Shown here in pieces: positions 18,362-24,913 of a stretch of 64,000 bases of DNA (positions within the stretch are counted from its first letter, which is position 1; the number at the start of each line of letters is the position of its first letter). Source of the DNA: a virus. A program made the translations under genes and the position numbers. The stretch lies in the IMG/VR virus record IMGVR_UViG_3300036772_000367, positions 64,001 to 128,000 of that record. One strand, 5' to 3'. Below the pieces are notes generated by a model, which saw only the letters and a program-made list of their open reading frames with translations, did no database searches and was not told where the DNA came from.

Positions 18362-19891
18362 ATCCCGAACTTCACTCAATACGTGCCGCCCAATGTGTAT
18401 ATCAATACTGCCTCGACACCTGTGGTGGCGCCGATCGGTGTCAACCCCACGGTCATTTGTCTCATCGGTGCGGGTGTTGGCTATAACACTTTTCAGGACA
18501 TTGTCACCTTCAGTGGATCAACACCGGTCACCCTGACGAAGAGTGGCATCAATGCTTCATCCATTGTGGTGACGGGATACATTCCCGATCCCAATGCCAG
18601 CAACCAGGCGCTGCCACACACCTTCTTGCCGGACATCACCGGTGGTTCCCCACAGACCAGGGACTATTCGGTCAACCAGACCGGCTCCGGGGCCAGCAGC
18701 GTCACCACGCTGACCAAGGAGGGGTCGGGCACGATCAGCACGACTTATCCGCAAGCAACGGTGTCCTACCAGTACACCGACGCCAGCTACTACGGATTGC
18801 ACTTCTTTTCCGACTACACCAGTTTCACCAACGCCTACGGTCCCGCGTTGGATCCCACCACCGGAGCTCTCGTCAGTCCTCTGTCGCTGGCTGCCCAGGT
18901 CGCCATGCAGAACGGCGCGAACCAGCTCTACGCCATCGCGCTGGAGGGTGGCTCCAACACTCTTCAACAGCAGTTCGCCGATGCCTATGCGCTGTTGTCG
19001 TCTACGAATACCGATGCCAACATCATCGTGCCGCTGTGGAATGAGGTTACCGATCCCACGCAGCTCGCCGGGATGCTCGCCACGCTCAAGGCATTCGTGG
19101 AGGGAGATGCGACCAATCAGGGCATTCTGCGGATGGCATTCGTCGGGTTCGACGAGGCTTACGCACCGGCAATATCGGACCTGGCGACGCTGGCGGTGAA
19201 CGTGGCCTCCGAACGAGTCGTGATGGCGTGGCCGAACCAGTTGAACTTCTTCAACGGAGTGACCTCCCAGACACAGATCTTGGACGGCTTCTATCTGGCC
19301 ACGGCCTATGCGGGGCTGCTGTCCGCGCTACCGCCGCAGATGCCGTTGACCCAGAAGTATCCCCAGGGCTTCTCGGGTGTGCCTATAGCGATCAGCCAGA
19401 CTCTGACTACGACAGCGAAGAACCAGCTCTCCAGCTCCGGCGTCACCGTCTGCAATACCGATCGACGGGGTCGTCTGGTTGTTCGACATGGTCTCACCAC
19501 AGATTATGTCGGCGGAGTGCTCGCTCGCGAGATCAGTCTGGTGCGGGCCGAGGACGCCCTGTTCAACTTGGTCGACCAGAACTTGCTCACCGCTCAACTC
19601 ATTGGTCAGCCGATCATCACCAACACGGTGACCAGCACCAACACCACTCTGTTGCAGGTACGGTCCATTGTGACCGGCGCGCTGGATACGGCGACGACGT
19701 CCGCGCTGATCAATGGCTACAACAACGTCGTGGTGACGGAACAGCAACCACCGTCGGGCGACCCCACTATTATCCAGGTGCAGTTCGCCTACTTGCCGCC
19801 GTGGCCGTTGAACTACGTCCTGGTGTCATTCAGCGTCGACACGACGACCGGTCAGACGAACCTGACGGCCTCGGGAAACACCACGGGCTGA
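18362..19891 (+). CDS. Tail sheath protein (start ATC 18362 or GTG 18383)
   Basis: PPNVYI N-terminus; LVVRHGLTTD...REISLVRAED...FAYLPPWPLNYVLVSF C-terminus. Confidence 0.9.
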   Translation: MPNFTQYVPPNVYINTASTPVVAPIGVNPTVICLIGAGVGYNTFQDIVTFSGSTPVTLTKSGINASSIVVTGYIPDPNASNQALPHTFLPDITGGSPQTRDYSVNQTGSGASSVTTLTKEGSGTISTTYPQATVSYQYTDASYYGLHFFSDYTSFTNAYGPALDPTTGALVSPLSLAAQVAMQNGANQLYAIALEGGSNTLQQQFADAYALLSSTNTDANIIVPLWNEVTDPTQLAGMLATLKAFVEGDATNQGILRMAFVGFDEAYAPAISDLATLAVNVASERVVMAWPNQLNFFNGVTSQTQILDGFYLATAYAGLLSALPPQMPLTQKYPQGFSGVPIAISQTLTTTAKNQLSSSGVTVCNTDRRGRLVVRHGLTTDYVGGVLAREISLVRAEDALFNLVDQNLLTAQLIGQPIITNTVTSTNTTLLQVRSIVTGALDTATTSALINGYNNVVVTEQQPPSGDPTIIQVQFAYLPPWPLNYVLVSFSVDTTTGQTNLTASGNTTG

Positions 19892-19896
19892 TGATG

Positions 19897-20748
19897 TTAC
19901 TCGACGTGCTTCCACGACTTACGTCGCACGATAGCGCTGACGTTTGCGGCAGACATGCCGTACGCGTGAGCGATGTCGTCGGTCAGATCACCGGAGGCGT
20001 ATCGAGCACGGATAATGCGGATGTCGTTGTCAATGAGACGACTACCACCACCTTGTCGACGAACATGAGGGGCTTCGATCTCGTCCAGGTGCTGCCAGGT
20101 CTGACCTCTGATCGCATAGCCCAAAACAGCGATCTGGACATTATGGTGAGCTGCGATGGAAGCTTGGGTCTCGCCTGCTTTGGATCGAGTCCGAGCATCC
20201 AATACGATGGCATCAGTCAGGACGGCCGAGTCATTGGCTTCGCCACGCTGATTGGTCTTCCCTCTAGCTCGGCCGCGCTTGCTTTTGTCTCGCATGTTGT
20301 CAGCATGGGTTCCGTTCTCCAGATGACTGGGACGACAACAGGGTGGGTTGTCGCACTTGTGTCGGGCATGGTCTGGGATCGCTCCGCCCTGACTCAGCAT
20401 CAAAGCCATACGGTGGGCTCCGATGGTGGACTTACCATCAGGATTCTTCCGGTCATTGAAGATACGGAACAATCCGTACTCCTCGCCTTGAACGGGTCGT
20501 CGTCCGGCGGTCCACTCCCAACACGAGTCGTCGTCGTCAATGATGTTGACCTTCGACCAGAATCGAACTTCCAGTTCTGTCAGCTCTTGAGGACAGCTCT
20601 GGAACAGGAGGGCCTTGCGTTCGGCCACCTTAGCTCGAAGATCTTTGAGTGTGTTCCACACCTCGGTGATCTGACTTTCGAGCGCCCTGATCGGTTCCCA
20701 GCCTTCGTTCCAATCGGCGAGGGTCCGTACTTTGTCGTCGTATTCCAC
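19897..20748 (-). CDS. HNH homing endonuclease with two C-terminal HTH modules; probably leaderless
   Basis: RFWSKV...CWEW...YG...AHR...HKCDNPPCCRPSHLENGTHADNMRD; TATACT 6 nt upstream of GTG 20748. Confidence 0.85.
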   Translation of the reverse strand: MEYDDKVRTLADWNEGWEPIRALESQITEVWNTLKDLRAKVAERKALLFQSCPQELTELEVRFWSKVNIIDDDDSCWEWTAGRRPVQGEEYGLFRIFNDRKNPDGKSTIGAHRMALMLSQGGAIPDHARHKCDNPPCCRPSHLENGTHADNMRDKSKRGRARGKTNQRGEANDSAVLTDAIVLDARTRSKAGETQASIAAHHNVQIAVLGYAIRGQTWQHLDEIEAPHVRRQGGGSRLIDNDIRIIRARYASGDLTDDIAHAYGMSAANVSAIVRRKSWKHVE

Positions 20749-20865
20749 GGCGGCAGTATAGCAGGTAGTGAAACCTCTTCGTTGGGTGCCTCGGAACCGC
20801 ACCAAAATGATCTTGAAGAGATCATCTTCGATGAGCGTTTTCCCTGCTGGGGTGGTGGTTAACTC

Positions 20866-21360
20866 ATGCCGAACACACAGGTTCGTGTCGTGGGATCTTA
20901 GTCCGGATTTAGCACTTTTAGCTACCAAGGACACCCTATTGCGTTCCTGGAGGGTGTAGAAGATTCCGGTCAGCGGGCCTTCTCCGACGCAGGTCAGGGC
21001 TACCAGTTCATCCACCCGTTGGGTTTCACGCACCCGATCGAGATCGCGACCTCGCGTGTGCTCGCGGGTGGCACGCTGAACCTGACCATCCGGGAATTGT
21101 GGAACACCTTCATCTGGGAGCAGCTGTTCGGTCTGGCGGGGACGCACAACATCGTGGACGTGTTCGCCGCCCTCGCTGCGAACCCCGCTTATGTCACCTG
21201 TCAGACGGTGATTCAGCCACCCGGTGGTGCTGCTCCTCGTGGAAAGAACTTCCACAATTGCGTGGTGGTTGACATTGCCGACAACGACACCATCACCGTG
21301 GGGGCGCTGGCGGTGACCAAGGGAATCGTCGTGGCATATACCCACTCATCGGCGCTCTGA
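20866..21360 (+). CDS. Tail tube protein with an in-frame TAG at 20899-20901
   Basis: MPNTQVRVVGS*SGFSTFSYQGHPIAFLEGVEDSGQ... continues in frame into the 21019 ORF; lies between sheath and chaperones. Confidence 0.8.
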
Positions 21361-22360: not shown

Positions 22361-24913
22361 ATGCCTCGGGAAAACGCACGCAAGACCGAAAACGCGTGGA
22401 AGCTTCGGGATGAGGAAGCAGCGCGCAACCAAGCGCAAGCTGCTGGTCAACCGAATCCCGCTGATGTGCGTTTCGGTGGCACTTCACAGATGCGGACCAT
22501 GAAGGTTCAGATCGTGGGTGCCGATAGTGCTTTCGTCGAGGACTTGAAGCGTGCGTTGGGAATCTCGGATAATTCAGGAACCATGGGCATCCATGCGAGT
22601 ATCGGTGGTGGCTTCGGAGAACTGCATACTCAACTTCAGTCCGTCATCACAGATCAACAGGCGATTTCCCAAGCCACCAAGCAGGTAGCGCAAGATCTTT
22701 CGTTGGCCGTGAACATGGTCACGAATTATCAAGCCACTATCGCTCGGCAAATGGGCACTTATATCTCGGATATGAGTAATCTGCGTCAGCAAGAAACCCA
22801 GCACATGCAGAACCTCGTCAGCATGATGACCAACGCGGTAGCTCAGATGCAGGGCGCCCCCGGTGGAGGGGGCGCCGTTCCGACGTCACCAACTCTTCCT
22901 GTCCCTCCTCCATCTCCTGGTGCACCACCACCCACCCCGTTGCCACCACCTCCTCCCAGGGGCGCAGGTGGTGGAGGTGGAGGCCCGACACCCCCTCTGC
23001 CACCTCGTCGTCCACGGACGCCTCCCACCCCATCCGGTGGTGGTACCACGATGAGTCAACTTCGTCAGCAGGCCGCACGGGGATATCGGAGTTGGGCGAG
23101 TGGTCATGGGTCAGCCGGTCAGACTATCGCCTCCACGGCCACGAATATAGGAAGTCGACTGCTACGGGCGAATCCCGTCACAGGAATTCCTCTCGCAACA
23201 GGGCAAATAATAAATGATGCAGCTATCTGGGTCACCAATCAACGTCAGGCCAATGCGCAGTATCAGTCGATCTATGACAATGGAAATTTCTCGGCAGGAG
23301 GAGCACTCTCTCAACTGGGTAGTTTCATTACTGGTGGTGCGACCAACGACACCTCCGGCTTCGGTCAACGAATGGCTGAAGAAGGCTTCGTCTTGTCCCA
23401 ACGGTTCTCTGGCGGGATGACAGAAGGTCAGGCGCGACAAGCTTTTCAGGGTGTTTCTCAACTCGGTTACGCTGGAGGTCAACGAGACAACGCATTGCAG
23501 TTTGTCTCAGACAACTACAAGCAGATGGGCATGGACATCGCCCAGTCTATTCAACTTGTTCAGTCGGCTGCGCAGAATGGTAATCAATCTCTCGCCGGAT
23601 TGGCCCAGCAACTTCAGGCGGTGTCTTCGCAAGCAGCCGCTACCGGTCAGAACGCGGGCGCGTTGCGACAACAGTTTTCGAATTACTACTCCCAGGGTTT
23701 GCAGTCGGGCCTGGGTGCAGGGTCTGGTTCTGTGGCGCAAGTGCTTACGTCGACTACTTCGGGTACCAGTCGTGACTTGACGAACGTCAACTACAGTTCG
23801 CTACTGTCCAACCCGGTCCTCATGCAGACCCTGGCGGCCCAGCGGGGGATGACTTTGGGACAGATGGAATCCCAGGTGGCCCAAGGCAATACCGGAGCCT
23901 TCACTCAAGCTTTGGGACAGCGCACCAATCAAGTATTGACAGGTTCTATGAACCAAACTCTGCGGACTCTGTTCAGTCAACAGGTGCAGCAAGCCGGTGG
24001 CTATCAACGAGTTGCACAGACACCTGGTTCGCAATACAACATTGCCGTCCAGCTCATGCAGAGTCGAGACTGGAATGTCATGGAAGCTCGGGCGGCCATG
24101 GGCACCCTGGGTATCGACACGTCCAAAATGAATGATGAGCAGATTGCCGAATATTACGTGTCGACCCTCTCCAGCGGCGGTGTTCAGGCTGCCGGCAGAG
24201 CACAACAGAGCAAACTCGGAACCCTCACACCACAGGAACGTGCTGCTGCGGGGGGTGGTAGCCCTAATATTGGTGGATCGTCTTATCTCAATAAGATGGC
24301 CCAGGACCGGGCTCAGAATACCCCCAGTGTGTTGGATTGGGCCAGTCAGCTCTTCGGTGGTGACAGCACAGAGAACAATGCTAAGAATGCCAAATCGCTT
24401 GCGCAGGCGTATCAGGGTTACGAGTCGCAGCAGGGCAACAGCAACCCGGCCATCGAATCGATGATCTCGTCACTGGGTACCACCGGTTCCTCTCAACTCC
24501 GTGTGCAGACACCCCAGGGTGACCGGGTGGTGTCCATGCAGGATGCGATCAAGTACTACTCCGACCAGATCTCCACTGGCTCGGCTGTCGTGGTGGGAGG
24601 CGCCCAGAACGGCAAGACTCTGGGAGAGGCCACCGGCACCGTCATCGCGGGCTACCAGTCACCCCGTCCGGGTGGTTCGGCCAAGAACGGCCCCGCCAAC
24701 ATCGGCCAGTCCTGGGCGGACTACCAGAAGGCCAACCCGAGCCAGCAGCAGGGTGCGGCGGCGGCCACCGGCACACAGACCAACGGCACCGTCACGGTAA
24801 GTCCGAGCCCCACGCTGATGCAGATGTTCAACTGGTCTTCCACGGGAGGCGTCAACATCGCGGGCTCCACGGCCCAAGGTGTGACACCCGCGATTCCGGG
24901 AGGCAACTATTGA
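22361..24913 (+). CDS. Tape measure protein
   Basis: Gln/Ala/Gly-rich helical protein after the chaperones; Pro/Gly linker. Confidence 0.8.
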   Translation: MPRENARKTENAWKLRDEEAARNQAQAAGQPNPADVRFGGTSQMRTMKVQIVGADSAFVEDLKRALGISDNSGTMGIHASIGGGFGELHTQLQSVITDQQAISQATKQVAQDLSLAVNMVTNYQATIARQMGTYISDMSNLRQQETQHMQNLVSMMTNAVAQMQGAPGGGGAVPTSPTLPVPPPSPGAPPPTPLPPPPPRGAGGGGGGPTPPLPPRRPRTPPTPSGGGTTMSQLRQQAARGYRSWASGHGSAGQTIASTATNIGSRLLRANPVTGIPLATGQIINDAAIWVTNQRQANAQYQSIYDNGNFSAGGALSQLGSFITGGATNDTSGFGQRMAEEGFVLSQRFSGGMTEGQARQAFQGVSQLGYAGGQRDNALQFVSDNYKQMGMDIAQSIQLVQSAAQNGNQSLAGLAQQLQAVSSQAAATGQNAGALRQQFSNYYSQGLQSGLGAGSGSVAQVLTSTTSGTSRDLTNVNYSSLLSNPVLMQTLAAQRGMTLGQMESQVAQGNTGAFTQALGQRTNQVLTGSMNQTLRTLFSQQVQQAGGYQRVAQTPGSQYNIAVQLMQSRDWNVMEARAAMGTLGIDTSKMNDEQIAEYYVSTLSSGGVQAAGRAQQSKLGTLTPQERAAAGGGSPNIGGSSYLNKMAQDRAQNTPSVLDWASQLFGGDSTENNAKNAKSLAQAYQGYESQQGNSNPAIESMISSLGTTGSSQLRVQTPQGDRVVSMQDAIKYYSDQISTGSAVVVGGAQNGKTLGEATGTVIAGYQSPRPGGSAKNGPANIGQSWADYQKANPSQQQGAAAATGTQTNGTVTVSPSPTLMQMFNWSSTGGVNIAGSTAQGVTPAIPGGNY

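Follow-up and report, generated by a model that had tools for sequence, protein, structure and literature searches.

To our knowledge, only a handful of natural cases of translational bypassing have been described, namely T4 gene 60 and its homologs, the yeast mitochondrial byps and the partly tested terminase of phage phiHau3. The gene 60 bypass reportedly goes together with the cassette of the HNH homing endonuclease MobA, a connection said to have been made by Bonocora and co-workers in 2011, and the UUA-mediated short bypass in the phiHau3 terminase is credited to a 2013 report by Smith and co-workers. The T4 gap is part of the MobA homing cassette, starts with a stop or hungry codon, is bounded by matched codons, protects against MobA, and "remains unique" (Manning & Atkins 2022, 10.1101/2022.08.31.505936). 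The large terminase gene of phiHau3, a Streptomyces phage, contains UUA-led blocks of 10 nt and 7 nt, whose bypass is supported by a junction peptide found by mass spectrometry (Antonov et al. 2023, PMC10732093). The role proposed in that paper is regulatory, sensing the growth stage of the host, and homing endonucleases go unmentioned in it, the word "homing" occurring 0 times (PMC10732093). Finally, synthetic stop-hops, in which a stop lies between matched codons and 9 nt code for one amino acid, were obtained with engineered constructs in Escherichia coli (Weiss, Gesteland & Atkins 1987, reviewed in Atkins et al. 2016, PMC5009743), and no natural in-frame stop-hop was known according to the 2016 review (PMC5009743).

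An amber codon in the tail tube gene

The locus described here lies in a 64,000-nt stretch of DNA, which we call the window, from a 155,226-bp virus record that corresponds to the whole genome of a soil phage from an uncultured source, with a G+C content of 59% and 40 tRNAs. Its tail module has a myovirus gene order, in which sheath, HNH endonuclease (minus strand), tube and tail assembly chaperone genes are followed by a long ORF. The uninterrupted tail sheath gene (18383..19891, plus strand; phrog_2839 tail sheath, E 1e-51) is the upstream neighbor of a free-standing HNH homing-endonuclease gene (19897..20748, minus strand; 283 aa), which is divergent from the tube gene and separated from it by an intergenic region of 118 nt (20749..20865). 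The chaperone genes follow the tube gene from 21400, and the long ORF (22361-24913), which has no family match, sits where relatives annotate the tape measure. The tube gene is the only copy in this phage, no second one having been found in its genome, and we found no near-identical DNA among GenBank phages. The part of its ORF beyond the amber codon described below matches phrog_2756 (E 4e-28) from profile position 10 onward, and a model of low confidence (pLDDT 52) finds its best fold matches almost entirely among tail-tube and Hcp chains; a profile search against PDB sequences gave no match.

The ORF that contains the HNH gene runs to 482 codons, with matches to phrog_59/1872/826 and to Pfam HNH_3 only at residues 246-481, i.e., the C-terminal 236. 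We rejected its extension up to 21345 as a shadow ORF, the family matches being confined to the HNH part, and placed the true start 118 nt away from the tube ATG, at GTG 20748, where the N terminus of the window protein aligns with the Met start of the HNH protein at a related locus (L082, see below). Two stretches of the window were thus treated as shadow ORFs, 19228-20862 (plus strand, 544 aa) and the 5' extension of the HNH ORF at 20749-21345 (minus strand), since they lack family matches and overlap real genes on the opposite strand.

As an earlier note on this DNA had claimed, the tube gene is interrupted by an in-frame amber codon between two Ser codons. The gene starts at ATG 20866, behind the RBS GGGTGGTGG (20850-20858) held by the divergent intergenic region, and its frame reads MPNTQVRVVGS-TAG-SGFSTF and then stays open to TGA 21358-21360, again as described there. 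A first part of 11 codons (20866..20898, plus strand; MPNTQVRVVGS) ends with TCT 20896-20898, the proposed take-off codon. It is followed by the TAG (20899..20901, plus strand), which would be the A-site codon at take-off, and by a second part of 152 codons (20902..21360, plus strand) that begins with TCC 20902-20904, the proposed landing codon, and GGA 20905, where decoding would resume. Another GGA, at 20893, precedes the TCT. Same-tRNA codons thus directly flank the stop, an arrangement with a chance expectation of about 3% for matched Ser codons, and UCU UAG UCC is the exact layout of the synthetic stop-hops.

The note had further suggested that skipping 6 nt would give RVVGSGF, the form seen in homologs, and our protein and DNA alignments confirm this, the window sequence minus 6 nt being the reading of more than 180 homologs. 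Among the best 120 protein relatives, 15 of the 16 sequences fetched read VVGSGF and one reads VVGSSF. Most of the closer metagenomic relatives, whose identity reaches 96%, have 162 aa, and 15 of the 16 fetched measure 162-168 aa. At the DNA level, there are no extra codons at the window site in 63 of 69 loci (13 loci plus 50 of 56 further viral loci), and the Cluster C mycobacteriophage, Gordonia and Rhodococcus homologs read RVGG-SGF, with a two-codon gap opposite the Ser-stop of the window. Since homologs read VVGSGF, the 6 nt, i.e., the TAG and one Ser codon, are an insertion, which the flanking TC repeat allows to be written as TCTTAG, CTTAGT or TTAGTC. The exact Ser-TAG-Ser allele was found nowhere else in IMG/VR, where the pattern V-V-G-S-TAG-S-G gave five chance matches, none of them in a tube gene. 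The closest protein relative (P0001, 96% identical) is without the insert, which may therefore be recent.

Tube residues 8-12 are invariant or nearly so, Ser11 being invariant and Gly12 near-invariant, and this bears on two readings in which the protein would lose N-terminal residues: a tube start downstream of the TAG, or a hop of +12 from GGA to GGA, as in T4. GGA codons do flank the Ser-TAG-Ser, but their use as a hop pair, an idea raised by the earlier note, was rejected because it would delete both Ser11 and Gly12. As for a downstream start, the first canonical one past the TAG is TTG 21019, at codon 52, which would remove 50 conserved residues, and changes in the 11 codons before the TAG have all been silent, with 9 synonymous and 0 non-synonymous differences from L042 (a divergence that may predate the insertion). 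We consider either reading highly improbable.

Global recoding of TAG, which had been judged unlikely from the start, is excluded, as TAG ends 32 of the 152 coding-like ORFs (21%). A suppressor tRNA encoded by the phage was also rejected, the CTA anticodon occurring in 0 of its 40 tRNAs. What could still be envisaged is readthrough, in which a near-cognate tRNA would decode UAG at a useful rate and lengthen the tube protein by two residues, to VVGS-X-SGF; the frame is indeed kept across the insert, and the phage tRNAs near-cognate to UAG include Gln(ctg), Tyr, Trp, Lys(ctt) and Glu(ctc). However, no homolog has an insertion within the conserved residues 8-12, and the related genes described in the next section make readthrough less attractive still.

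The suggestion that one tRNA could read both Ser codons holds, the phage encoding the tRNA-Ser(GGA) concerned. It also encodes tRNA-Gly(tcc) and tRNA-Leu(taa), the latter being one of five tRNA-Leu genes (G000:C1:16402-17657) that are only 74-75 nt long and lack the typical long variable arm, so that their Leu identity is given by the anticodon alone. The Leu tRNAs in the genome of the related locus L089 have a normal length of 84-88 nt. In terms of RNA structure, the mini-hairpin GGAU-CUUA-GUCC pointed out earlier is present, but it is weak (-3.3 kcal/mol), and 67 of 200 shuffled sequences fold at least equally well; the wider RNA structure around the site is no better than that of shuffled sequences. 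The nascent chain is only 11 residues long at this point, and there is no long nascent-peptide signal at codon 11.

Interrupted tube genes in related phages

We scanned 56 IMG/VR tube loci, reading the 5' end of each, and found six further genomes with interrupted tube genes. Counting the window, the series comprises eight gaps, spread over seven genomes that come from different metagenomes. Gap length is 2-15 nt, and the gaps fall at three sites in the first 46 codons, all within about 135 nt of the start codon. L082 is interrupted at the same Ser codon as the window, by 15 nt (TCT, then TTA GGA GCC TAG, then TCT). A second site follows a Trp codon, 18 codons downstream, and is used in L089 (8 nt: TGG, then TTAATTGT, then GAG), L090 (7 nt: TTAATGC) and L091 (8 nt: TTACC, then a second TGG), while the first of two gaps in L094 lies three codons before it (4 nt: TGT, then TTAC, then GAG). 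The third site, at a Gln codon, holds the second gap of L094 (2 nt within CAG TTT TTA TCC) and, at about codon 45, that of L095 (8 nt: CAG, then TTACTTAG, then TTC). When aligned using MAFFT, the TCT-TAG-TCC of the window pairs with the ends of the 15-nt insert in L082, which suggests how the window allele could have been derived: an L082-like insert would have been shortened, moving the stop beside the take-off codon.

These related alleles help in choosing between the two outcomes that the earlier note had left side by side, bypass and readthrough. Five of the seven gaps outside the window (five of eight overall) are out of frame, with shifts that vary, and readthrough cannot rescue them. 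While no one frameshift rule or readthrough model fits all the gaps, the invariant junction is regained in each of them if the gap is skipped in full. Hopping is thus the favored half of that claim, and we regard readthrough at the window TAG as improbable.

A different explanation is that the window gene is null or an artifact, i.e., that a recent lethal mutation (for example, mis-repair after a nuclease cut), a minority variant picked by the assembler or an assembly error is being seen and that no tube protein is made. The window allele is indeed a singleton from an uncultured virus record, its closest homolog lacks the insert, and there is no stimulatory RNA structure at the site. Yet the seven further gaps come from six independent metagenomes, fall in the same 135 nt, are all TTA-led and are all beside inserted DNA. 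Moreover, tblastn matches the 1.5-kb sheath gene in a single frame, never broken, at 56 of 56 loci, and the tube genes are otherwise open at every locus, which shows that poor assembly quality is not the explanation. The genome of L089 is complete, with terminal repeats, and its gap is shared with L090, at a common site and with a common TTAAT start, even though their HNH proteins have diverged to 70% identity. Considering also how seldom matched Ser codons would surround a stop by chance, we find a null gene or artifact unlikely, albeit less so than readthrough.

Substitution patterns provide signs that the interrupted genes are still used. The L089 and L090 tube genes differ by 9 synonymous and 5 non-synonymous changes before the gap and by 54 and 15, respectively, after it. 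A common gap, diverged HNH proteins and conserved halves together argue that this gap has persisted under purifying selection on both sides. Similarly, when L094 is compared to L084, the three segments delimited by its two gaps, which are in three frames, show 13, 8 and 33 synonymous against 0, 0 and 5 non-synonymous differences. Judging from such counts, purifying selection acts on the gene segments that surround the gaps.

Some loci in this set have features of their own. In L094 (2543-2620), the +4 and +2 gaps jointly restore the frame, with the 19 codons in between out of frame with both ends. In L090 (2400-2425), the tube gene apparently starts with ATC, 8 nt after GGAGG, the sole alternative being a GTG that overlaps the RBS.

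Inserted DNA and codon signature of the gaps

The earlier note had also drawn attention to the adjacent HNH gene, and a link between gaps and inserted DNA is borne out across the 56 loci. Interrupted tube genes are found in 7 of the 15 loci with inserted DNA between sheath and tube and in 0 of the 41 without (Fisher p = 3e-5, with an effective sample made smaller by near-duplicate loci), and more than 500 nt are inserted at this position in all seven interrupted loci. An HNH gene, missing between sheath and tube in the 41 relatives, is present in five of the seven interrupted genomes: the window, L082, L089 and L090 have a divergent HNH gene of one family (phrog_1872/59/826), and L095 has an HNH gene of another family. 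The inserted DNA encodes a methyltransferase in L094 and nothing recognizable in L091. Four loci (L047, L060, L062 and L065) have an HNH gene of the phrog_1872/59/826 family next to an intact tube gene, which indicates that the insert is not obligatory. Within the window tube gene, GC3 is 0.47 in the first 90 nt versus 0.67-0.87 in the rest of the gene, and 0.67-0.77 in the same stretch of relatives. This tract rich in A/T-ending codons, which spans ~30 codons from the tube start (20866..20955, plus strand), may be the product of co-conversion or serve nuclease immunity, a low GC3 being what would be expected if the 5' end had been co-converted or had become nuclease resistant.

The gaps share a codon signature at both ends. 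Seven of the eight gaps have TTA as the first zero-frame codon past the last conserved one, the exception being the window, which has TAG there. In the window genome, no sense codon is as rare as TTA, which occurs 23 times in 41,711 codons (0.55 per 1000), the next rarest being five times commoner. At the other end, the triplet before resumption matches the take-off codon at at least two of three positions in eight of eight gaps. Landing is exact or wobble equivalent in four of them, i.e., in the window (UCU/UCC), L082 (UCU/UCU), L091 (UGG/UGG) and the +2 gap of L094 (UUU/UUU). Three landing triplets in relatives match at two of three positions only, and the mismatch at the +4 site of L094 is in the middle position. 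A structure common to the gaps could not be found at the RNA level, the related gaps being inconsistent in this respect: in L082, UUA forms the loop of an 8-bp hairpin (z = -2.35), and in L091 a hairpin lies just past the take-off codon.

The two kinds of stall codon may be related to the tRNAs available. The complete genome of L089 encodes 40 tRNAs without a Leu(UAA), and no tRNA-Leu(UAA) was seen in the partial tRNA clusters of the L082, L091 and L094 genomes. The use of UAG in a phage that has its own tRNA-Leu(UAA) thus fits, in these few genomes, a need for a slow-to-decode codon in the A site.

Two additional observations concern the tRNAs of these phages. In the genome of L091, ARAGORN reports a tRNA with a CTA anticodon ("tRNA-Pyl"; L128:913-986) where sister phages have tRNA-Arg(tct), and this may be either an amber suppressor or an anticodon loop that was mis-registered. 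In the 166-kb genome of L090 (G003), which is rated complete, an Rfam tRNA search gave 0 candidates, against 38-40 in its sister genome G002.

A proposed stop-hop and its relation to known systems

The reading that we think rather probable is an HNH-linked short translational bypass, which in the window would take the form of a "stop-hop" of +6, with UCU for take-off and UCC for landing. On this view, the 6 nt are left untranslated and would have arrived, or been selected, with the free-standing HNH gene, and most likely, by analogy with T4 MobA and gene 60, this short insert would alter the nuclease's target at the tube gene's conserved 5' end. During translation, peptidyl-tRNA-Ser(GGA) would sit on UCU in the P site, held by a G-U wobble, with the slow-to-decode UAG in the A site. 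The tRNA would then unpair, the mRNA would slip by 6 nt and the tRNA would re-pair perfectly with UCC, so that decoding would restart at GGA and give the normal MPNTQVRVVGSGF... protein that homologs have. Only some of the ribosomes would be expected to hop. Synthetic stop-hops are reportedly about 1% efficient, and a tail tube is required in hundreds of copies. The efficiency of the proposed hop, the level of expression across the gap and the protection from cleavage are accordingly parts of a model built on comparative evidence. More tentatively, and with somewhat less than even confidence, the model can be widened to large actinophages in general, whose free-standing homing endonucleases would carry, or select for, bypass inserts of 2-15 nt in a neighboring essential gene, with a stall codon tuned to the tRNA set of the phage, UUA where tRNA-Leu(UAA) is absent and UAG where it is encoded.

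A close precedent for the gaps themselves is the phiHau3 terminase. In both cases, a short non-coding block (7-10 nt there, 2-15 nt here) interrupts an essential, conserved actinophage gene at invariant junctions, with a proposed landing codon. The block is UUA-led in phiHau3 as it is in L082, L089, L090, L091, L094 (both gaps) and L095; the window differs in having UAG and in being in frame. In contrast to phiHau3, the gene here encodes a tail tube, the phage is a myovirus of about 155 kb and the gaps lie beside HNH homing-endonuclease genes.

The system is also reminiscent of T4 gene 60 and MobA, the likeness in the nuclease being one of HNH type and adjacency. In each system, an HNH endonuclease gene accompanies an untranslated insert in a neighboring essential gene, one tRNA can read the take-off and landing codons (UCU/UCC and tRNA-Ser(GGA) in the window), and the A site is occupied at take-off by a stop or hungry codon (UAG in the window, UUA in the other gaps). 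In both, some loci keep the insert without a recognized endonuclease (here L091 and L094). However, the T4 gap is 50 nt long, comes with a stem-loop at take-off, a signal in the nascent peptide and an internal SD, and is always in Topo2L, at Gly46 or Asp45, whereas the gaps described here span 2-15 nt at codons 11-46 of a tube gene, show no consistent structure and, in the window, leave only 3 nt between the Ser codons.

If inserts tuned to the tRNA set are indeed bypassed, the window would contain the first natural in-frame stop-hop, and this in a major virion protein. The actinophage UUA gaps would be linked to homing endonucleases, as with T4 MobA, which suggests that such inserts are nuclease-immunity scars tolerated via recoding, rather than (or as well as) regulatory devices. 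Together, the window and the seven sister gaps form a compact natural series, of 2-15 nt, with four take-off tRNAs, UUA and UAG stalls and one small, easily assayed gene, in which the requirements of short hops could be tested directly. A practical consequence is that gene callers will mis-annotate interrupted tube genes as truncated genes or pseudogenes.

Finally, two observations extend beyond the interrupted genes. Three relatives with tube genes 60% identical to that of the window (L142, L143 and L144) are contigs of 151-157 kb in Streptomyces assemblies, making a UUA-poor actinomycete host plausible; one of them carries the annotation of a complete plasmid (pRLB1-9.1), which points to carriage as a phage-plasmid or in a pseudolysogenic state. 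In a metagenome contig (OEPS010000346.1; L021:2471-3925), the tube gene is 484 codons long, owing to an insert of ~320 residues after a conserved ...NYMN that begins with Cys, ends with ...LTGN before a Cys and contains a LAGLIDADG-like motif. By these sequence features, the insert is probably an intein, which makes the tube gene of this group of phages an apparent hot spot for selfish elements.
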